DNA of 64,000 nucleotides from assembly GCA_035651255.1 (NCBI GenBank), contig DASRGB010000021.1:9229-73228 (forward strand), in the 5' to 3' direction. A program made the position numbers and the translations under genes. Below the pieces are notes generated by a model. The model was not told where the DNA came from. It did no database searches and saw only the letters and a program-made list of their open reading frames with translations. Shown here piece after piece: positions 1,211 to 63,295 of the stretch. This stretch comes from Pseudolabrys sp. (lineage in GTDB: Bacteria > Pseudomonadota > Alphaproteobacteria > Rhizobiales > Xanthobacteraceae). Each line of letters starts with the position of its first letter. Position 1 is the first letter of the stretch.

Positions 1211-2341
1211 ATGACAGCGACCAAGGACCAGGTTCTGACCGCCTTAGCCAAGGTGCCCGCACCCGGCGGCGTTGCGCTCACCGATGCCCGCGTGTTGTCC
1301 GATATTGTCGTCAGCGACGGCAAGGTGTTCTTCTCGATCACGGTCGATGCCGCCGCGGTCAAAGCCTGGGAACCGGTGCGCAAGGCGGCGGAGGAGGCGG
1401 TGCGCGCTGTGCCGGGCGTGCAGACCGCGCTGGTGGCGCTGACCGCGGAACGCAAAGGCGGCGCTCCGGCGCCGCGGCCAGGCGCCGCAACGCCCGCCGC
1501 GCGGCCGGCGCATCCCACCGATCAGGTCCAGCCCGGCATCCCCGGTGTCGATGCCGTCATCGCCGTTGCCTCCGGCAAAGGCGGCGTCGGCAAGTCGACC
1601 ACCGCCGTCAACCTCGCACTCGGTCTGCGCGACCTCGGCCTCAAGGTCGGCATGCTCGATGCCGATATTTACGGCCCGTCGCTCCCGAAGCTGCTCGCCA
1701 TCAAGGAAAAGCCGCAGACGGTCGGCGGCAACCGCCTCAGGCCGATCGAGCGCTACGGCCTCACGGTGATGTCGATCGGCTTCCTGATCGACGAAGAAAC
1801 GCCGATGATCTGGCGCGGGCCGATGGTGATGTCGGCGATCACGCAGATGCTGCGCGAGGTGGAGTGGGGCAAGCTCGACGTCATGGTGGTCGATATGCCG
1901 CCCGGCACCGGCGACGCGCAGCTGACGATGGCGCAGCAGGTGCCGCTCAAGGGCGCGGTGATCGTGTCGACGCCGCAGGATCTCGCGCTCATCGATGCGC
2001 GGCGCGGCGTCGCCATGTTCAAGCGCGTCAACGTGCCGGTGCTCGGCGTGGTCGAGAATATGAGCTATTTTCTGTGCCCGAGCTGCGGCACGCGGTCCGA
2101 TATTTTCGGCTATGGCGGGGCGCATAAGGAGGCCGATCGGCTGGGCGTGCCCTTCCTCGGCGAGGTGCCTCTGCACATGACCATTCGCGAAAAATCGGAT
2201 GCCGGCCTGCCGGTCGTGGCGACCGAGCCGGATGGCCCGCACGCCAAGATCTATCGTGAAATCGCCGCCAAAGTTCGCGATCAGATGACGGGCGGTGTGG
2301 CCGCCGGACGCGCCGCGCCCAAGATCGTCATCGAGGCCTAG
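1211..2341 (+). CDS. mrp: Mrp/ApbC/NBP35 iron-sulfur cluster carrier ATPase
   Basis: ASGKGGVGKST Walker A, DADIYGPS, WRGPM, DMPPGTGD, CPSC motif; N-terminal DUF59-like domain. Confidence 0.95.
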   Translation: MTATKDQVLTALAKVPAPGGVALTDARVLSDIVVSDGKVFFSITVDAAAVKAWEPVRKAAEEAVRAVPGVQTALVALTAERKGGAPAPRPGAATPAARPAHPTDQVQPGIPGVDAVIAVASGKGGVGKSTTAVNLALGLRDLGLKVGMLDADIYGPSLPKLLAIKEKPQTVGGNRLRPIERYGLTVMSIGFLIDEETPMIWRGPMVMSAITQMLREVEWGKLDVMVVDMPPGTGDAQLTMAQQVPLKGAVIVSTPQDLALIDARRGVAMFKRVNVPVLGVVENMSYFLCPSCGTRSDIFGYGGAHKEADRLGVPFLGEVPLHMTIREKSDAGLPVVATEPDGPHAKIYREIAAKVRDQMTGGVAAGRAAPKIVIEA

Positions 2342-2432
2342 CCGCTCCGCGTGTCTTGCGCTTTTTTGCGCACGGACGCATGGTGGCCGAAAATCCGGAA
2401 GCGGCTCGACCCGCTTCGCAGGGGGGAAGTAA

Positions 2433-3542
<1,110 letters not shown>

Positions 3543-3561
3543 CCAGCGAAATCACCCGTTG

Positions 3562-3596
3562 ACGGGGCCGGCGACGAGCCGGCCCCGTTGTTTTTT
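3562..3596 (+). terminator. Rho-independent terminator after TRAP SBP copy 1
   Basis: 11-bp stem ACGGGGCCGGC/GCCGGCCCCGT followed by TGTTTTTT. Confidence 0.8.
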
Positions 3597-3623
3597 CGGC
3601 GAAGATTCCGGACTTTTTTCTCT

Positions 3624-3640
3624 TACAACTTTTGTATAAT
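3624..3640 (+). promoter_or_regulatory. Possible operator overlapping a -10 box upstream of TRAP SBP copy 2
   Basis: Inverted repeat TACAA-ctt-TTGTA overlapping a perfect TATAAT at 3635-3640. Confidence 0.35.
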
Positions 3641-3760
3641 GGGTGCAGACTGGTACGAGGGGGCGGGCTCCGTCATGATTTCCGCAAGACCTCGATAAAG
3701 GGATTGAGTCTGGCGGAGAGGTCGACCACTCAAATCAAGTCATAAAGATCAGAGGGAGGA

Positions 3761-4852
3761 ATGGGAATGAAACGTCGTCAATTTCTGAAGTCGGCCGGTA
3801 TTGGCCTTGCCGCCAGCGCCGTCGCCGCGCCGGCCATCGCGCAGTCGATGCCGGAAGTGAAATGGCGCATGACCTGCAGCTGGCCGAAGTCGCTCGACAC
3901 GCTCTTCGGCGCAGCCGAGCAGATGGGTAAGGCGGTCGCGGAAGCGACCGACAACAAGTTCCAAATCCAGGTATTCGCCGGCGGCGAGATTGTGCCGGCC
4001 CTGCAAGCGCTCGATGCCGTGCAGAACGGCACTGTCGAAATTTGCCACACCGCCTCGTACTATTATTTCGGCAAGGACCCGACTTTCGCCTTCGGCACCT
4101 CGGTCGCGTTTGGGCCGAACGCGCGGCTCAACCAAGGCTGGTTCACCCTGGGCGGCGGCAAGGAAGTGCTCAACGAATTCTACAAGAAGTACAACGCGAC
4201 GGCGCTGCTTGCCGGCAATACTGGCTGCCAGATGGGCGGCTGGTTCCGCAAGGAAATCAACAGCCTTGACGACCTGAAGGGCCTGAAGATGCGCATCGGC
4301 GGCTTCCCCGGCAGCGTGCTGCAGAAGCTCGGCGCCGTGCCGCAACAGATCGCCGGCGGCGACATCTATCCGGCGCTGGAGAAGGGCACCATCGACGCGG
4401 CCGAGTGGGTCGGCCCCTATGACGACTTCAAGCTCGGCCTGTACAAGATCGCGCCGCATTACTACTACCCGGGCTGGTGGGAAGGCGGCTCGATGCTGTT
4501 CGCCTTCGTCAATCTCGAAAAGTGGAATGCGCTGCCGAAGAGCTACCAAGCTGTGTTGGAGCAGGCCGCGGCCTACGCCAACCAGTGGTGCCTCGCGAAA
4601 TACGATCAGCTCAATCCGGAGTATCTGCGACGGCTGCTTGCCAGCGGCGCCAAGCTCCACCCCTTCACGCCGGCGATCATGGAGGCTTGCTACAAGGCCG
4701 CCATGGAGCTTCATGACAGCATCGCGAAGACCAATCCGAGCTTTAAGAAAGTCAACGATTCAATGGTGGACTACACCAGGAACGGCTACCAGTGGTTCCA
4801 GGTGGCTGAGCTCGGCTACGATTCCTTCATGGTCCGCCACAATCGGGCCTGA
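3761..4852 (+). CDS. TRAP transporter substrate-binding protein (DctP, TakP-like), Tat-exported, copy 2
   Basis: Paralogue of 2454..3542 with the same motifs; RRQFL Tat signal. Confidence 0.92.
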   Translation: MGMKRRQFLKSAGIGLAASAVAAPAIAQSMPEVKWRMTCSWPKSLDTLFGAAEQMGKAVAEATDNKFQIQVFAGGEIVPALQALDAVQNGTVEICHTASYYYFGKDPTFAFGTSVAFGPNARLNQGWFTLGGGKEVLNEFYKKYNATALLAGNTGCQMGGWFRKEINSLDDLKGLKMRIGGFPGSVLQKLGAVPQQIAGGDIYPALEKGTIDAAEWVGPYDDFKLGLYKIAPHYYYPGWWEGGSMLFAFVNLEKWNALPKSYQAVLEQAAAYANQWCLAKYDQLNPEYLRRLLASGAKLHPFTPAIMEACYKAAMELHDSIAKTNPSFKKVNDSMVDYTRNGYQWFQVAELGYDSFMVRHNRA

Positions 4853-4873
4853 CGATCGCGCCAAGACAAGCGC

Positions 4874-4909
4874 AAGGCCCCGGAGGTCTCCTCCGGGGCC
4901 TTTTATTTT
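4874..4909. terminator. Terminator between convergent TRAP SBP and DctM genes
   Basis: 12-bp stem AAGGCCCCGGAG/CTCCGGGGCCTT followed by TTATTTT. Confidence 0.8.
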
Positions 4910-4914
4910 CCGCG

Positions 4915-6519
4915 CTACCTCTTTGGCTCGCTGAAGTCGAGCGGCGGCGGCGCCTCGATTTGCGGGATTTCGATTTTGATCTTGTTGAGATCGACCTTTG
5001 ACGGCCCCTCGAGCAGGGCGGTCACCGTCAACGGGAACGCGATCACCAGCGCCACCATGATGAGCTGCAGCCCCACCCACGGCAACGCACCCCAGTAGAT
5101 GTCCGCGCTCTTCACGCTCTTGGGCGCGACGCCGCGCAGGTAGAACAGTGCGAATCCGAACGGTGGATGCATGAACGATGTCTGCATGTTGACGCACAGC
5201 ATCACGCCGAACCAGATCAGCGCCGCATCGGGTCCCACGACCGGCGCCAGGACCTTCTGCGCCGTCGGCGCGATCATCGGCAGAATAATGAAGGCGATCT
5301 CGAAGAAATCGAGGAAGAACGCCAGAAAGAAGATGAACAGGTTTATGAAGATAAGGAAGCCCCAAACACCGCCCGGCAGCGATGTCAGCATGTTTTCAAT
5401 CCATACGCCGCCGGAAACGCCGAGAAAAACGATCGAGAAGCAGGTCGAACCGATCAGGATGAAAACAACCATGGCGGTGATGCGCATGGTCGTCTCGTAA
5501 CCTTGTTTGATGAGATTACGGAGTTCGGGAATGTGGACCGCCTCGATGCAGATCCAGGCGATCGCAAAGTAGGTCAATGCGAAGGCGACCTTGAAGATGA
5601 GGCCTTCCGACAGGAAGATTCCGACCAGCGTGCCGATGCCGGCGGCGATAATGCCGATGATGAAGATCTTCCGTCCCGGGGCGCTGAACGCCTTATGGTG
5701 CGTGACGGCCAGAACGATGGCGCCGACCGCTCCCATGGCGCCGGCTTCCGTCGGCGTGGCGAGGCCGAGCATCATGGTGCCAAGCACGACAAAGATCAGC
5801 ACCGCGGACGGAATGATGCCAAGGAGGCACTTTCGCCATAGCGGCCAGCCGGTCAATGTCCGCGCATCCTTCGGCACCGGCGGCACGTGGTCGGGCTTGA
5901 AAATGCCGAGCAGGAACGTGTAGCCGGCAAACAGCGCGATCTGGAACAGCGACGGCCCCCAGGCGCCGAGGTACATGTCGCCGACCGATTTGCCGAGTTG
6001 ATCTGCCAGGACGATGAGCACCAGCGAGGGCGGCACGAGCTGAGTAATGGTTCCGGACGCCGCCAGCACGCCGGTGGTGTAGCGGATGTTATAGCCGTAG
6101 CGGATCATCACCGGCATCGAGATCAGCGCCATGGCGATGACTTGTGCGGCGACGGTGCCGGTGATCGCGCCAAGAATGAAGCCGACGATGATGACCGAGT
6201 AGCCGAGGCCGCCGCGGATCGGGCCGAACAATTGACCCATCGAGTCGAGCATGTCTTCGGCGAGGCCGCAGCGCTCGAGCACAGCGCCCATGAAGGTGAA
6301 GAACGGGATCGCCAGCAGCAGGTCGTTGGACAGAACCTGGCCGAAGATTCGCAGAGGAATAGCTTGCAGGAAGCTCAGATCGAAAAAGCCGTGCTGAATG
6401 GCAATGAAACCGAACGTGATCCCCAACGCGGCGAGAGTGAACGCCACCGGGTATCCAAGCAGCATGAAGACCACAAGGCCGCCGAACATCAGCGGCGGCA
6501 TCGTTTGCAAGGTGATCAT
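4915..6519 (-). CDS. dctM: TRAP transporter large permease
   Basis: LLAIPFF, ASGTITQLVPPS, TPTEAGAMG, PPFGFALFYL; start MITLQT overlaps the dctQ stop (TAATG). Confidence 0.92.
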   Translation of the reverse strand: MITLQTMPPLMFGGLVVFMLLGYPVAFTLAALGITFGFIAIQHGFFDLSFLQAIPLRIFGQVLSNDLLLAIPFFTFMGAVLERCGLAEDMLDSMGQLFGPIRGGLGYSVIIVGFILGAITGTVAAQVIAMALISMPVMIRYGYNIRYTTGVLAASGTITQLVPPSLVLIVLADQLGKSVGDMYLGAWGPSLFQIALFAGYTFLLGIFKPDHVPPVPKDARTLTGWPLWRKCLLGIIPSAVLIFVVLGTMMLGLATPTEAGAMGAVGAIVLAVTHHKAFSAPGRKIFIIGIIAAGIGTLVGIFLSEGLIFKVAFALTYFAIAWICIEAVHIPELRNLIKQGYETTMRITAMVVFILIGSTCFSIVFLGVSGGVWIENMLTSLPGGVWGFLIFINLFIFFLAFFLDFFEIAFIILPMIAPTAQKVLAPVVGPDAALIWFGVMLCVNMQTSFMHPPFGFALFYLRGVAPKSVKSADIYWGALPWVGLQLIMVALVIAFPLTVTALLEGPSKVDLNKIKIEIPQIEAPPPLDFSEPKR

Positions 6520-22349: not shown

Positions 22350-22463
22350 TGCGGCATCCCTTGCCCGGCCGTCAACGCCCGCGGCGCCAATGCGTTCCGA
22401 CATCGCGGCCGACGGCGCCGCGACGTGCTAGGCTCGCCGCGCAAACGCTTTCGGGGGGCGGTC

Positions 22464-51129: not shown

Positions 51130-51489
51130 ATGCGCCAAAGCCTGCTCGTCGTTCTTGCCGTGCTCGCCTTCTTCGGCCTCGCCGGGGCGGCCTTCGCCGA
51201 CGCCATCGACGGCGACTGGTGCCACCAGCAGAGCGGCCGGCGCTTTTCCATCCGCGGTCCGCAGATCGTCACGCCGGGCGGCAAGCAGATGCTCGGCAAT
51301 TACAGCCGGCACTGGTTCGACTATGTCGTGCCGGCCCCCGAGCCCGGCGCCGGCCGCACGGTGTTCATGCGGCTGCTCGACGAGAACACCGTGCATCTGC
51401 GGGTCGGTGACGAGAACGCGGCCGAAGCGGAGACCTGGATCCGCTGCTCGCCGACGACCAGCGCGTTGCGCGCGCCGCCGCAGAGCTGA
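51130..51489 (+). CDS. Secreted hypothetical protein
   Basis: Signal peptide ending AFA; DAIDGDWC...WIRC. Confidence 0.75.
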   Translation: MRQSLLVVLAVLAFFGLAGAAFADAIDGDWCHQQSGRRFSIRGPQIVTPGGKQMLGNYSRHWFDYVVPAPEPGAGRTVFMRLLDENTVHLRVGDENAAEAETWIRCSPTTSALRAPPQS

Positions 51490-51621
51490 CCTTCGTTGGC
51501 GCGGCCGGCGGCGGCTGCGACAGTTCAGGATCCGCGCCGCGAGCGGCGGCTTTGCGAGGCGGCACGGTGCGCGGCGGCGCGCCGGGCGGCGCCGGGCTTG
51601 CCCCGGTGATGCCGGCCGGCT

Positions 51622-52539
51622 TCACTTGAAGCGCGGCAGAGCCTGTTTGATGCGGGCCATGCTCGCCCAAGGGTCGTTGCGCAGCTTCGACAGCCGCTGC
51701 ATGGCATTTTGCACGGTGTATTGGCTGGCGCTCTTGAGCGAGCCGAGCTCGGACCAGTCCACCGGCAGCGCCACCGGCGCGCCGGGGCGCGCCCGCGAGG
51801 AGTAGGGCGCAATCGCCGTCGCCTCGCGGCTGTTGCGCAGGTAATCGACGAAAATGCGGTTGTGCCGCCGCGCCTTGGTCGCGGTGGCGAGATAGCGTGC
51901 GGGGTCGTCCTTCGCCATGCTCAGCGCCACCGTATGGCAGAACGCCTTGGCGACTTCCCAGGGCGCGGGCTTGATCGGCGCCACCACGTGTAGCCCCTTG
52001 CCGCCGGTGGTCTTGACGAAGCTCGTCAGCTTGACGCGCTTGAGCCGGGCCCGCACCTCGCGCGCCGCGGCGACGACGTCGGCGAAGTCCATGCCGGGCC
52101 CGGGATCGAGGTCGAACACCAGGCGGTCGGCGCTGCCGAGATCGCCGATGCTCGAGCCACGCACGTGGATTTCCAGCGCGCCGCCCTGCACCAGCGCGAT
52201 GATGCCGGCGAGGTCGTCGACGGCGATGACCTTGTCGCCCTTTTCCGGCACCAGATGCAGGAATTCAGTGGGGATGCCCAGGCGCGCGTGCTTCTGGAAG
52301 AAGCACTGGCCGTCGGCGCCTTCCGGGCAGCGCACCACGGCGATGACGCGGCCGACGACATGCGGCCGCATCCATTTCCAGACCTTTTCGTAATATTGGG
52401 CGAGGTCGCTCTTGCTGACGCCGGCATCGCTCCAATAGATGCGGTCGGGATGCGTGAGCTTGACGGCGCCGAACATGGCGGCCGCGCGCCCGCCGCGGGC
52501 GGCGCGCCGCTTTGCCAGGCTCGGCCGGGCCGCCCTCAT
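51622..52539 (-). CDS. NHEJ primase-polymerase (LigD Pol module) as a standalone gene
   Basis: LTHPDRIYW, FFQKH, DRLVFDLDP, KTTGGKGLHV, IFVDYLRN; ATG overlaps the ligase stop (ATGA), GGAG RBS. Confidence 0.9.
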   Translation of the reverse strand: MRAARPSLAKRRAARGGRAAAMFGAVKLTHPDRIYWSDAGVSKSDLAQYYEKVWKWMRPHVVGRVIAVVRCPEGADGQCFFQKHARLGIPTEFLHLVPEKGDKVIAVDDLAGIIALVQGGALEIHVRGSSIGDLGSADRLVFDLDPGPGMDFADVVAAAREVRARLKRVKLTSFVKTTGGKGLHVVAPIKPAPWEVAKAFCHTVALSMAKDDPARYLATATKARRHNRIFVDYLRNSREATAIAPYSSRARPGAPVALPVDWSELGSLKSASQYTVQNAMQRLSKLRNDPWASMARIKQALPRFK

Positions 52540-53597
52540 GCCGTCTTCTCCCGCACCACCTGTCTGGCCGGCTTGTCGTGGCGCACGCCCTGGAACGAGG
52601 CCTGTCGCACGCGGTCGCCGTGGGTCCAGCCGCGAAAATCGACCTCCACCACCATTTTCGGATCGACCCAGATCGGCCCGCGGCGGCCGCGCTCTTCCTT
52701 GGGCACGGAGTCGAGCGGCGAGTCCCGGCGCGCGCGCGCCTTGAGCGCGCGGTAGAGCTCGCGCGCGGTCTGATGCGTGAAGCCGGTGCCAGTCCGCCCG
52801 GCATAGTGCAGCTTGCCGCGCCGGTAGACGCCGAGGACGAGAGCGCCGACCGCATGCGCATCCGCGGTCGACGGCGTAAATCCGGCCACCACGAATTCCT
52901 GGCGGTTGGAACATTTGGATTTGAGCCAGTCGTGGCCGCGGCCGGAGCGATAGGGCGCGTCGGCGACTTTCGAGATGATGCCTTCCAGGCCCATCTTGCA
53001 GGCCTGCTTGAGCAGCACCGAGCCGCGTTCGGTCAGCGATTCACTGAAGCGCACCGCGCCGCGCGCCCTCGCCAGCAGCCGTCCGAGCGCGGCCTTGCGC
53101 GCGGTGAGCGGTAGCGGCTTGAGGTCGGCGCCGTCGCAATGCAGCAGATCGAAGGCATAGTAGACCATGCGGTCGTGACGGCCGTCCTTGAGGTCCTGCT
53201 GCAGCAGGGAAAAACGCGAGACGCCGTCTTTGTCTTCGGACACCAGTTCGCCGTCCATCAACGCCGTGTCTGCCGGCAATCCGGCGACCGCCTCGGCGAC
53301 GGTCGGGAACTTGTCGGTCCAGTCGAGCCCCTTTCGCGTCATCAGCTTGACCTTGCCGTGTTCGAGCCGGGCCTGGATGCGGTAGCCGTCGAACTTGATT
53401 TCGTGGATCCAGCGGGCGCTATCCGGCGCCTTGGCGATGAGCGTTGCCAGCTGCGGTTCGACGAAGCCGGGCAGGGCGGTTCGGCGCGGGCCCGTGGCCG
53501 TGCCGGGTTTTTTCGGCGTCAGCCGCCGCGGACGCCGCATCAATTGCGGGGCGGCGGGGCGCCTGCGCCGGGTCTTTCTGGCCGGCCGGGGCGTCAT
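52536..53597 (-). CDS. ligD: ATP-dependent DNA ligase (LigD ligase module) as a standalone gene
   Basis: EIKFDGYR, MDGE, FDLL, EGIISK, WLKSK, EVDF motifs I-VI; ATG overlaps the PE stop (ATGA). Confidence 0.9.
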   Translation of the reverse strand: MTPRPARKTRRRRPAAPQLMRRPRRLTPKKPGTATGPRRTALPGFVEPQLATLIAKAPDSARWIHEIKFDGYRIQARLEHGKVKLMTRKGLDWTDKFPTVAEAVAGLPADTALMDGELVSEDKDGVSRFSLLQQDLKDGRHDRMVYYAFDLLHCDGADLKPLPLTARKAALGRLLARARGAVRFSESLTERGSVLLKQACKMGLEGIISKVADAPYRSGRGHDWLKSKCSNRQEFVVAGFTPSTADAHAVGALVLGVYRRGKLHYAGRTGTGFTHQTARELYRALKARARRDSPLDSVPKEERGRRGPIWVDPKMVVEVDFRGWTHGDRVRQASFQGVRHDKPARQVVREKTA

Positions 53598-54244
53598 CGC
53601 CGCCGCGCCCGCGTCGGCTTGCGTGTCCTGCGCCTGGCCGCCGTGCGCCTGGCTTTGGTTTTTGCCTTGGCCTTGCGCTTGTGCTGCGCGATCTCCTCGA
53701 GCGTACGGCCGGTCTTCACCGACAACGGTTTTTCCTCGAGGATGTCCTTGTCGCGCTCGGTGCGCGCCGCCGCGTCGTGCTGCTTGATCAGCAGCCAGTT
53801 GTCGCGCTTCTCGCCGGGGCGGCGGCGCATGCGCACCAGATGCCAGCCGCCGTGCAGCTTCTGGCCGTCGAGCTGGAACGCCAGATGGCCTTTGGCGAGG
53901 CCCCGTTCCGGATCGCCCTCCGGCGTCCAGCGCCCGCGGTCCCACACCATGACGGTGCCGCCGCCATATTCGCCTTGCGGAATCGTGCCCTCGAATTTGT
54001 TGTATTCGATCGGGTGATCCTCGACCTGCACGGCGAGCCGCTTCTCGCCGGGTACAAGGCTCGGCCCCCGCGTCACGGCCCAGCTTTTCATGACGCCGTT
54101 GAGCTGGAGCCGCAGGTCGTAGTGCAAGCGCGTGGCGTCGTGCTTCTGGACGACGAAGGCGTTGCCGCGCTTTCCCGGGCGGCCGCGAGGTTCTTTGGTG
54201 ACTCCGAAATTGCGCTTGGCGTGGTATTTGGACAGCGCAGGCAT
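53594..54244 (-). CDS. LigD 3'-phosphoesterase module as a standalone gene
   Basis: YHAKRNF..T.EP, FVVQKHDATRLHYDLRL, KSWAV, VEDHP, LLIKQHD. Confidence 0.9.
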   Translation of the reverse strand: MPALSKYHAKRNFGVTKEPRGRPGKRGNAFVVQKHDATRLHYDLRLQLNGVMKSWAVTRGPSLVPGEKRLAVQVEDHPIEYNKFEGTIPQGEYGGGTVMVWDRGRWTPEGDPERGLAKGHLAFQLDGQKLHGGWHLVRMRRRPGEKRDNWLLIKQHDAAARTERDKDILEEKPLSVKTGRTLEEIAQHKRKAKAKTKARRTAARRRTRKPTRARRR

Positions 54245-54247
54245 TGC

Positions 54248-55108
54248 TTAGCTTGCTTTACGCACCTTTCGTTTCGGCGCGGCGCGCTTGCGTCCGTTGC
54301 TCTTGCGCGCGGCGCCCTGCCGGCTGTCCTTGCCGCCGCCTTTGGCGCTGCGCCGCAGCGCGTCCATGAGGTTGATCACATTGCTCGGCTTGGCCTCGGA
54401 GATGACCGGCGGCTTCTTGCCGGCGCGCTTGGCCTTGATCAGCTCCATCAGCGCATTCTCGTAGCGGTCCTCGAATTTGGCCGGATCGAAGTGGCCCTTC
54501 TTGCTGTCGAGGATCTGCACCGCGAGCTTGAGCATGTCGGGTGCGACCTTGATGTCCTTGATCTCGTCGAAATAGTCCTTTTCCGCGCGCACCTCGGTCT
54601 TGTAGCGCAGCGCCGTGCCCATCATGCCCTTGCCGCGCGGCGCCAGGAGCAGCAGATGCTCGCGCCGGTAGATCACCACGCGGGCCAGCCCGACAAGGTC
54701 GTCCTTTTTCATCGCCTCGCGGATGACGGCGAAGGCCTCCTGGCCCATCTCGTCCTGCGGCACCAGGTAATAGGATTCGTCGAGATAGATGCGATCGACT
54801 TCCGACATCGGCACGAACTGCTCGATGTCGATGGTGTGCGTGCTCTCCAGCGCGACGTTGTCGAGCTCGTCCTCCTCGACCAGGACGTATTCGCCCTTCT
54901 CGAACTGATAGCCTTTGACGCGGTCCTCTTGCGGCACCGGCTCGCCGGTCTCGGCGTCGACCACTTCATTGCGGATGCGGTTCCCGGTTTCCCGGTTGAG
55001 GATGTTGAAGCGGATGCGCTGGCTGGTCGAGGTGGCCGGGTAGAGCGCGACCGGACATGAGACGAGCGAGAGCTTGAGGTAACCCTTCCAATTCGGCCGC
55101 GGTGCCAT
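54248..55108 (-). CDS. ku: NHEJ Ku protein
   Basis: WKGYLKLSLVSCPV, YLDESYYLVP, FEDRYE, basic C-terminal tail. Confidence 0.95.
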   Translation of the reverse strand: MAPRPNWKGYLKLSLVSCPVALYPATSTSQRIRFNILNRETGNRIRNEVVDAETGEPVPQEDRVKGYQFEKGEYVLVEEDELDNVALESTHTIDIEQFVPMSEVDRIYLDESYYLVPQDEMGQEAFAVIREAMKKDDLVGLARVVIYRREHLLLLAPRGKGMMGTALRYKTEVRAEKDYFDEIKDIKVAPDMLKLAVQILDSKKGHFDPAKFEDRYENALMELIKAKRAGKKPPVISEAKPSNVINLMDALRRSAKGGGKDSRQGAARKSNGRKRAAPKRKVRKAS

Positions 55109-55137
55109 GGACGCAAACTCCTGAAACGCTACCGGTG

Positions 55138-55163
55138 AACGGCGCAGGGATTGAACATGTTCC
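55138..55163 (-). promoter_or_regulatory. EcfG-type promoter for ku-PE-lig-pol
   Basis: GGAAC-N17-CGTT on the minus strand, ending 30 nt upstream of the ku start. Confidence 0.8.
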
Positions 55164-55396
55164 CATGATAGCCGCTTTTGCCGCGCCGGCGGCGATTGAA
55201 ATTACTCATGTTTTCAAGACGCTTAACGCGCGGTGGCGGCGCGACCCGGAACCACGTCACGACGTTCGCGTTTTTCCCCCGTGCGGCGCCGGCGCGGTGC
55301 GAGGCTCGCGCGCCGTCCGTAAGCGTCAGCGTCATTGCCGCGTTTCGCACCACCGGCCCCGTGCGGTTTCACTCGCCGCGCGGGGCCTCCTGCTGT

Positions 55397-56314
55397 TCAG
55401 CCGAGCGAGGTGATCACCGAGAACAGCTCGGACGGCGTCAGCACCATCTCGAAGAACAGCCGCACGGCGATCGCGATGATCAGAAGCGCCAGCGCGCTGC
55501 GCAGCTCTTCGGCGCGCAACCGCGCCCCGGCGCGAATGCCGAATTGCGCGCCGACCACGCCGCCGATCACCAGAATCAGCGCCAGCACGATATCGACGGT
55601 ATGGTCGACGGCGCTGTGCAGCACGGTCGCCATGCAGGCGACGATGAACATCTGAAATTGCGAGGTGCCGATGGCGAGCGAGGTGCGCATGCGCAGCAGG
55701 TAGACCTTGGCCGGGATGAGAATGAAGGCGCCGCCGGTGCCGAGGATCGCCGTCATGATGCCGACCAGAAAGCCGAGCACGACCACCGGGATGACGCTGA
55801 TATAGAGTGCCGAGCGGTAGAACCGCATCTTGAACGGCAGCCGGTGAATCCAGGTGTGCTGGCCCGGCCGTCGTTCGATACGCACGCCTTTGCGCGCGGC
55901 GCGGATGGCGCGCACGCTCTCCACCAGCATCAGCGCGCCGATGGTGCCGAGCAGGATGAGATAGCTGAGCTTGATGACAAAATCGATTTGACCGATTGTC
56001 TGCAGCAGCCGGAAGATGGCAACGCCCAGCGCCGAGCCGACGAGACCGCCGAACAGCAGCCACAGCCCCATCTTGTAGTCGACGGACTTCTTGCCGCCCT
56101 GGCGAATGGCGCCGACCAGCGCGGCCGCCGCCACGGGGCTGGCCTGGCTCGCCACCGCGATGCCGGAGGGAATGCCGTAGAAGATCAGCAACGGCGTGGT
56201 GATGAAGCCGCCGCTGACGCCGAGCATGCCGGAGAGAAATCCGACGGCGAGGCCTATCCCCAGCAATGTGAAAGAGTTGACGGCGAGTTGCGCGACGGGG
56301 AGGTAGATTTCCAT
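55397..56314 (-). CDS. Sulfite exporter TauE/SafE family protein
   Basis: GFLSGMLGVSGGFITTPLL, GGAFILIP, multiple TM helices. Confidence 0.9.
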   Translation of the reverse strand: MEIYLPVAQLAVNSFTLLGIGLAVGFLSGMLGVSGGFITTPLLIFYGIPSGIAVASQASPVAAAALVGAIRQGGKKSVDYKMGLWLLFGGLVGSALGVAIFRLLQTIGQIDFVIKLSYLILLGTIGALMLVESVRAIRAARKGVRIERRPGQHTWIHRLPFKMRFYRSALYISVIPVVVLGFLVGIMTAILGTGGAFILIPAKVYLLRMRTSLAIGTSQFQMFIVACMATVLHSAVDHTVDIVLALILVIGGVVGAQFGIRAGARLRAEELRSALALLIIAIAVRLFFEMVLTPSELFSVITSLG

Positions 56315-57966: not shown

Positions 57967-58506
57967 CTATTCGCCGCTTGCCAGAACGGCGCGGGTCTGC
58001 TGGTCGGGGCCGAATTCTTCGGCGCTCTCGATGCCCATCAGCTCGGCGAGCCGCGTGCGCGCGCGGTTGACGCGCGACTTGATGGTGCCGACCGCGCAAC
58101 CGCAGATATGCGCGGCCTCCTCATAGGAGAAGCCTGAGGCGCCGACCAGCACCAGCGCTTCGCGCTGGTCGGCCGGCAGCTGCGCCAGCGCCTCGCGAAA
58201 TTCGCGGAATTCCACCTGGCCGATCTGATCCGGTTGCGACTTCAGCGTCTCGGCGTAGTGGCCTTCGCCGTCCTCGACCTCGCGCCGGCGCTTGCGATAC
58301 TCCGAGCGGAAATGGTTGCGCAGGATGGTGAACAGCCATGCCGACATGTTGGTGCCGGGCTGAAACGAGTCGATGTTGGCGAGCGCGCGCAATAGCGTCT
58401 CCTGCACCAGATCGTCGGCGCGGTCGACATTGCCGCACAACGAAATGGCGAATGCGCGGAGACTGGGCACCGCGGCGAGGACGGCTTTGCGCACGGAGTC
58501 ATCCAT
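57967..58506 (-). CDS. ecfG: General stress response ECF sigma factor (EcfG/SigT/RpoE2)
   Basis: LRAFAISL, ADDLVQETL, AWLFTILRN, GTIKSRVNRAR; downstream of nepR. Confidence 0.93.
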   Translation of the reverse strand: MDDSVRKAVLAAVPSLRAFAISLCGNVDRADDLVQETLLRALANIDSFQPGTNMSAWLFTILRNHFRSEYRKRRREVEDGEGHYAETLKSQPDQIGQVEFREFREALAQLPADQREALVLVGASGFSYEEAAHICGCAVGTIKSRVNRARTRLAELMGIESAEEFGPDQQTRAVLASGE

Positions 58507-58833: not shown

Positions 58834-58858
58834 GGAACTTTTTGCAAATGCCCACGTT
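58834..58858 (+). promoter_or_regulatory. EcfG-type promoter for phyR
   Basis: GGAAC-N16-CGTT. Confidence 0.85.
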
Positions 58859-61561: not shown

Positions 61562-61587
61562 AACGTGGCCGCACCGGGAAAAGTTCC
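61562..61587 (-). promoter_or_regulatory. EcfG-type promoter for DUF883 operon
   Basis: GGAAC-N17-CGTT on the minus strand. Confidence 0.8.
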
Positions 61588-63270: not shown

Positions 63271-63295
63271 GGAACTTTCTTCCCCTTGTCACGTT
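63271..63295 (+). promoter_or_regulatory. EcfG-type promoter for DUF992
   Basis: GGAAC-N16-CGTT. Confidence 0.8.

Follow-up and report, generated by a model that had tools for sequence, protein, structure and literature searches.

Does a Pseudolabrys genome encode LigD, the multidomain enzyme of non-homologous end joining (NHEJ), as three separate proteins, or does it carry a fused gene that only looks broken? The question is raised by a 64,000-nt stretch of contig DASRGB010000021.1 (assembly GCA_035651255.1), referred to here as the window. At 51622-55108 on its minus strand, ORF (open reading frame) reading reveals four co-oriented genes lying head to tail: ku, followed by a stand-alone 3'-phosphoesterase (PE), a stand-alone ATP-dependent ligase (Lig) and a stand-alone primase-polymerase (Pol). 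A prediction made from the sequence of the window (the original prediction) had proposed that LigD underwent a double gene fission here, and its four genes and their coordinates match this reading exactly (Table 1). The comparisons described below support a genuine double fission of a PE-Lig-Pol LigD.

Gene layout and domain identity

The genes are tightly packed, with spacers of 3, -4 and -4 nt for ku/PE, PE/Lig and Lig/Pol; the PE ATG lies 3 nt past the ku stop. At both internal junctions the downstream ATG begins one base ahead of the upstream TGA, and thus each downstream gene is in the -1 frame of its predecessor. Both are the exact ATGA overlaps that had been predicted. The GGAG proposed as the ribosome-binding site of Pol is also present, 9-12 nt 5' of its ATG, and another GGAG lies 10-13 nt 5' of the ku ATG.

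Domains were assigned with Pfam and NCBIfam profile models at their curated bit-score cut-offs. Ku is full length, matching TIGR02772 over positions 1-258 of 259 (301.1 bits; cut-off 150). The PE is a LigD-type phosphoesterase (TIGR02777, 229.1 bits; cut-off 144) that covers PF13298 from 1 to 107 of 107 positions, Lig contains an NHEJ ligase domain (TIGR02779, 339.3 bits; cut-off 227.75), and Pol is a primase-polymerase (TIGR02778, 298.3 bits; cut-off 214.7) covering positions 2-254 of 254 in PF21686. On the 870-position PE-Lig-Pol model NF004628 (PRK05972) the three proteins are collinear, at 5-211, 230-550 and 569-858, and therefore both breaks fall within the two interdomain linkers. None of them is a full-length LigD: NF004628 has a cut-off of 895 bits, and the three proteins reach 304.5, 384.2 and 325.3; two of them reach 324 and 322 bits against the TIGR02776 cut-off of 373.2.

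The catalytic motifs are intact, as originally predicted, in alignments to proteins of known structure. PE aligns with the Pseudomonas aeruginosa phosphoesterase PaePE (2LJ6; 2e-59) and keeps the QKHD, LHYDLR and VEDHPxxY motifs, whose His, Asp, Arg, His and Tyr residues we take, from the PaePE literature, to be catalytic. NHEJ ligases were recognized by a nucleotidyltransferase and an OB domain, the motif I lysine (KxDG) and motifs III-VI; Lig aligns with the ligase domain of Mycobacterium tuberculosis LigD (1VS0; 1.5e-43) and retains KFDGYR, DGE, FDLL, EGIISK, WLKSK and RQASFQGVR. For Pol, an AEP fold match was required together with the DxD and downstream Asp/His catalytic motifs, and FFQKHA, DLDP, GGKGLH and FVDYLRNSR are kept in the alignment to PaePol (2FAO; 1.5e-51). 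Pol and PE also match the NHEJ polymerase (5DMU; 1.5e-48) and phosphoesterase (5DMP; 1.5e-40) of Methanocella paludicola.

The split recurs in a single clade

The genome containing the window is a 4.0-Mb, 95%-complete draft in 98 contigs. In such a draft, two sequencing or assembly indels might have broken a normal fused ligD, and scattered frameshifts do occur in some related long-read metagenome-assembled genomes (MAGs; loci L100, L101 and L030). We surveyed 201 species-level genomes of Pseudolabrys, a soil genus. A full-length fused LigD is encoded in 101 of them, and about 20 (~10%) have three adjacent pieces like those of the window. At the locus level we verified 18 distinct genomes, in which PE, Lig and Pol occupy the same three frames as in the window and the proteins are 66-86% identical to those of the window. 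The PE/Lig junction is ATGA in 17/17 cleanly read split genomes, mostly inside cgccgATGAccgcc. The Lig/Pol junction is ATGA, TGATG or TAATG, at the same place and with the same frame relation, and its stop/start overlap is always 4 or 1 nt.

A maximum-likelihood tree was built in IQ-TREE from the joined core sequences of PE, Lig and Pol (94 rows, 740 columns), with ultrafast bootstrap and SH-aLRT as measures of support. In it the 18 split loci all group together, with support of 100/100, inside the fused LigDs of Pseudolabrys, and quick trees agree with this placement. On this phylogeny, one fission origin suffices for the split clade. It is therefore extremely improbable that sequencing or assembly errors produced the split: both frame changes stand at the same linker positions in 18 independent genomes, a start codon overlaps each stop, which random errors would not recreate every time, and the split genomes are monophyletic although their assemblies range from 300-680 contigs down to 2-20 contigs. 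The original prediction had argued from the improbability of two errors each yielding an ATGA overlap; the comparative evidence goes further than that argument and supports the double fission itself, with the same layout in 18 genomes, a single fully supported clade and dN/dS values (the ratio of non-synonymous to synonymous substitution rates) like those of fused relatives, as described below.

One member of the split clade departs from this pattern. In L035 / L118 (G182; 2289-3686) the usual PE stop is absent, the PE frame continues for ~700 nt across lig, which is read in another frame, and the PE/Lig frame relation is unlike all others; this may reflect loss of the stop codon with an indel, or an assembly error.

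Programmed frameshifting

Even with separate genes, programmed -1 frameshifting near each junction might still yield fused PE-Lig-Pol, PE-Lig or Lig-Pol beside the separate products. The position of each downstream gene in the -1 frame of its predecessor, conserved in all split genomes, would suit such a mechanism. So would the downstream frames of the window, whose upstream open stretches measure 660 and 501 nt from stop to stop; the ~350-380 nt given in the original prediction correspond to 348 and 375 nt from the first upstream start codon. However, across 17 genomes the open stretch varies from 24 to 687 nt at PE/Lig and from 12 to 1206 nt at Lig/Pol, and both minima occur in a single locus (L122). 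Within the stretch that would permit a shift, a slippery heptamer of the form X_XXY_YYZ is absent before PE/Lig in 13/17 genomes and before Lig/Pol in 15/17, and no such site keeps its position across the genomes. The window has two heptamers, near the PE start, where a shift would skip the PE domain. The locus thus differs from programmed -1 frameshift genes of the dnaX or insertion sequence (IS) type, and the earlier caveat that a frameshift could restore a fusion finds no support, given that neither the open stretch nor a heptamer is conserved. The variation of the junction among ATGA, TGATG and TAATG fits translational coupling better than slippage. We consider programmed frameshifting very unlikely, and the discrete products of a double fission remain the reading that we adopt.

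Selection on the separate genes

If the split marked the onset of decay, the pieces would be heading for loss, as in relatives that retain a PE-Pol fusion or Pol alone. Such loci without a ligase, in some cases with remnants of Ku, occur here and there in the genus, and a few members of the split clade have extra frameshifts. We compared pairwise Nei-Gojobori dN/dS between the split clade and fused Pseudolabrys, restricted to pairs with dS of 0.4-1.1. The values are 0.19 in the split clade and 0.22 in the fused forms for PE, 0.23 and 0.28 for Lig, 0.26 and 0.23 for Pol, and 0.18 and 0.17 for Ku. Purifying selection is unchanged after the split, the same as in fused relatives. An apparent 3-4-fold relaxation of selection in the split clade, obtained in a first comparison, was dropped; it arose because dS was saturated (~1.9) in the fused clade chosen, and it vanished with dS-matched pairs.

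Beyond the equal dN/dS of all four genes, incipient decay is at odds with the intact catalytic motifs, with the persistence of the arrangement across a clade with dS of ~0.6-0.75, and with the fact that these pieces are the only LigD of the genome: the 95%-complete assembly yielded no second LigD and no other ligase of the LigD type. Decay is thus an unlikely explanation, and the evidence favours a split LigD maintained by selection.

Reconstruction of the fission

The Lig/Pol break can be followed at the level of individual codons. The nearest fused forms (L037 and L038) read ...VVREVKAMAA... in this region, and the split genomes read ...VVREVKH-stop, overlapped by MA.... A net gain of 2 nt just 5' of a pre-existing in-frame linker methionine would explain this junction. 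The GGAG/GAGG before Pol corresponds to the Arg-Glu codons (CGG GAG) that close the ligase domain. The ancestral PE/Lig junction could not be reconstructed by linker comparison, because this linker is of low complexity and too variable.

In L037 (CAVXGN010000032.1, 2307-4992) PE is separate, ending in a TAA stop with Lig-Pol in another frame, and Lig-Pol is still fused; its PE break may be an independent event or an error of a long-read MAG. We considered L037 as an intermediate of the fission and rejected it. Its PE/Lig break is of another type, it is a single long-read MAG and it sits in an unresolved polytomy; therefore, it serves as a comparison sequence only and not as evidence for the order of events.

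A model of the split NHEJ operon

We think it highly probable that this locus is a stress-inducible ku-PE-lig-pol NHEJ operon of a Pseudolabrys species (Xanthobacteraceae), born by fission of a fused LigD. In this model, the ancestor of a Pseudolabrys subclade inherited a single-chain PE-Lig-Pol LigD, which two frame-shifting changes, one in each interdomain linker, cut into three genes; the split arose only once. At Lig/Pol, the added 2 nt created a stop overlapping the existing linker methionine, and the CGG GAG codons at the end of the ligase already supplied a Shine-Dalgarno-like GGAG. A single mRNA is likely transcribed from an EcfG-type promoter before ku, and translation probably proceeds by termination-reinitiation coupling at the 4-nt or 1-nt overlaps, since the stop/start signals vary yet always overlap. 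Ku and the three separate enzymes may then act jointly at DNA ends, as in M. paludicola, with PE trimming 3' ends, Pol filling gaps and Lig sealing. What used to be linkers are now free, strongly basic tails, which may hold the parts on DNA or on Ku.

Several points weigh against this model. No clear Shine-Dalgarno sequence was found at the Lig start of the window. Extra frameshifts are present in split-clade members L113, L117, L128 and L129, as long-read errors or as incipient decay. Co-transcription (from the gene overlaps), coupling and the existence of separate products are inferred, as are the joint activity of the enzymes and the part played by the tails. With only one split on the tree, the greater basicity of the tails counts as one evolutionary event, and statistics across split genomes are not independent.

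In addition to the C-terminal tail of PE, the window has basic N-terminal tails of ~45 aa on Lig and ~25 aa on Pol. For the PE/Lig linker, the median Lys+Arg fraction is 0.44 in split tails compared with 0.31 in fused linkers, and the median length is 80 compared with 54 aa; split PE/Lig tails contain 35-56% Lys+Arg. For the Lig/Pol linker, the corresponding medians are 0.35 and 0.23 for Lys+Arg, and 30 and 38 aa for length. One tentative idea, which we regard as possible but on the doubtful side, is that the freed linkers were remodelled into long poly-basic tails that now do the work of the covalent link, anchoring PE, Lig and Pol on DNA or on the Ku C-terminus. If so, the clade would be a natural experiment on why LigD is usually a single chain, with fused sister species as controls, and it would show how modular loss becomes possible, as in the recurrent ligase-less PE-Pol forms of the genus.

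Fused LigDs share a short motif, A-A-x-L-[RQ]-L-M-R, in their PE-Lig linker (AAILRRTKK-like), and about half of the split genomes have it in the N-terminal tail of Lig. The N-terminal tail of Lig in the window contains PQLMRR (e.g., 53480-53545, minus strand).

Probable regulation by an EcfG-type promoter

In Sinorhizobium meliloti, ku and ligD genes are under EcfG/RpoE2 control, and putative EcfG sites precede ku in ~90% of ku-bearing Alphaproteobacteria (Dupuy et al. 2019, PMC6379672). In the window, a GGAAC-N17-CGTT motif begins 55 nt upstream of the ku ATG, a distance that fits EcfG-regulon promoters. The window contains six matches to GGAAC-N16/17-CGTT compared with 0.92 expected, and 0/100 shuffles reached six. 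Among 45 related loci, 16 have the exact motif before ku, between -48 and -68, in split and fused lineages alike, and one more has it at -83. Based on this distance, enrichment and positional conservation, EcfG probably controls this ku operon. GGAAC...CGTT stands upstream of ku both here and in S. meliloti; in contrast to the reported control in that species, the EcfG link proposed for Pseudolabrys is drawn from the motif and its positional conservation. Within 51200-55500, no sigma-70-like promoter was found, and terminator-like sites occur at chance level, none of them a convincing intrinsic terminator.

Three EcfG-type motifs cluster around an ORF for an extracytoplasmic function (ECF) sigma factor at 57967-58506, ~3 kb from the NHEJ operon, which suggests that this may be an autoregulated general-stress locus. 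The motif at 55248-55272 faces away from ku and has no obvious target gene.

Table 1. Features of the NHEJ operon and EcfG-type motifs in the window
Feature	Position	Strand	Remarks
ku	54248-55108	-	286 aa; first gene of the operon; basic C-terminal tail; PF02735 (1.8e-49)
LigD 3'-phosphoesterase (PE), stand-alone	53594-54244	-	216 aa; Lys/Arg-rich C-terminal tail; PF13298
NHEJ ATP-dependent ligase (Lig), stand-alone	52536-53597	-	353 aa; nucleotidyltransferase and OB; PF01068 and PF04679
LigD-type primase-polymerase (Pol), stand-alone	51622-52539	-	305 aa; last gene of the operon; PF21686
PE/Lig ATGA stop/start overlap	53594-53597	-	PE stop TGA (53596-53594) overlapped by Lig ATG (53597-53595); Lig in -1 frame relative to PE
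Lig/Pol ATGA stop/start overlap	52536-52539	-	Lig stop TGA (52538-52536) overlapped by Pol ATG (52539-52537); Pol in -1 frame relative to Lig
EcfG-type promoter motif	55138-55163	-	GGAAC-N17-CGTT; upstream of ku
Further EcfG-type motif	58834-58858	+	
Further EcfG-type motif	61562-61587	-	
Further EcfG-type motif	63271-63295	+	
Further EcfG-type motif	55248-55272	+	
Further EcfG-type motif	22374-22398	-	

Comparison with known NHEJ systems

Discrete operonic Lig, Pol and PE have been described (Bartlett et al., PMC4797286). Like the AP-NHEJ system of M. paludicola, the Pseudolabrys locus has a separate ligase, polymerase and phosphoesterase encoded in one operon, with Ku present, and by gene layout it is a discrete-subunit AP-NHEJ operon. 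Unlike those of M. paludicola, its parts derive from a recent fission of a proteobacterial PE-Lig-Pol LigD and are closest to fused Pseudolabrys LigDs (60-76% identity). Pseudolabrys also differs in keeping the ancestral domain order, in its 4-nt overlaps and in having ku first in the operon, and its system is described here from sequence. With the fused LigD of the Pseudomonas aeruginosa class the split form shares the domains, their order, the catalytic motifs and a ku directly upstream, and by phylogeny the fused form is its direct ancestor. The split form is no longer one polypeptide, however, and its former linkers are free, more basic tails.

"Nonconventional NHEJ" includes Ku with LigD domains in different proteins and is enriched in Firmicutes and Actinobacteria, whereas fused LigD is enriched in Proteobacteria (Sharda et al. 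2020, PMC7719229). In contrast to that category as a whole, the present case is a proteobacterial lineage with a fission that can be dated on a tree. In a second sample, of 300 Alphaproteobacteria, 56 had LigD-like matches, 39 of them full length. The others include PE + Lig-Pol, PE-Lig + Pol and PE + Pol layouts (the last in 5/56), and a three-way split turned up once more, in a different family (G497). Splits of one sort or another were seen in about one in five of the sampled Alphaproteobacteria that have LigD.

The original prediction had allowed that the split architecture might already be common and described in this family. In part this is so: the split is common in the subclade, at about a tenth of the sampled species, and split operons have been described in general; we found no account in the literature of a split LigD in this particular Pseudolabrys lineage. 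Split LigD operons are already a known kind, and the finding reveals no new kind of system; the new part is the lineage itself and how clearly its fission can be followed. The record is a clean one, with a single origin, fused sisters, a reconstructable step at one junction and unchanged constraint. It provides matched fused and split NHEJ machines, and with them a possible test of what the covalent linkage of PE, Lig and Pol contributes. Surveys that require a three-domain LigD would misscore these Pseudolabrys as nonconventional or incomplete, though they are apparently fully equipped.

Other LigD architectures in Pseudolabrys

Other forms of LigD were identified in the genus. L025 (G005; 2178-3710, minus strand) encodes a PE-Pol fusion ORF of ~510 aa from which the ligase domain is cleanly missing, and no LigD-type ligase was found anywhere in this 93%-complete genome. 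Single-ORF PE-Pol fusions of about this size are also present in L132, L135, L137, L139, L140 and L145, and Pol-only loci in L133, L134, L136, L138, L141, L143 and L144; in L138 and L139 a short piece of Ku survives upstream. Both forms are dispersed among fused LigDs on the Pol tree, and the genus has therefore lost the ligase on at least 3-4 separate occasions.

Some loci are degraded. In L029 (G013; 2786-4943), Ku residues 1-123 are joined directly to Lig residue 82 onward by a deletion in which the C-terminus of Ku, the whole of PE and the N-terminus of Lig were lost. L030 (G002) has extra frameshifts in Pol, PE or Lig, as do the four frameshifted split-clade loci named above, all long-read MAGs. 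These six loci may reflect either sequencing error or real decay.

The genus also contains a second, distant lineage of LigD paralogues (~43-54% identical) with breaks of its own, represented by L026 (G004; 2379-5113), L130 (G179), L131 (G151) and L004 (G014). In G004 the paralogue is divided into PE and Lig-Pol, and in G179 it has an ATGA at PE/Lig and an in-frame TAA between Lig and Pol.

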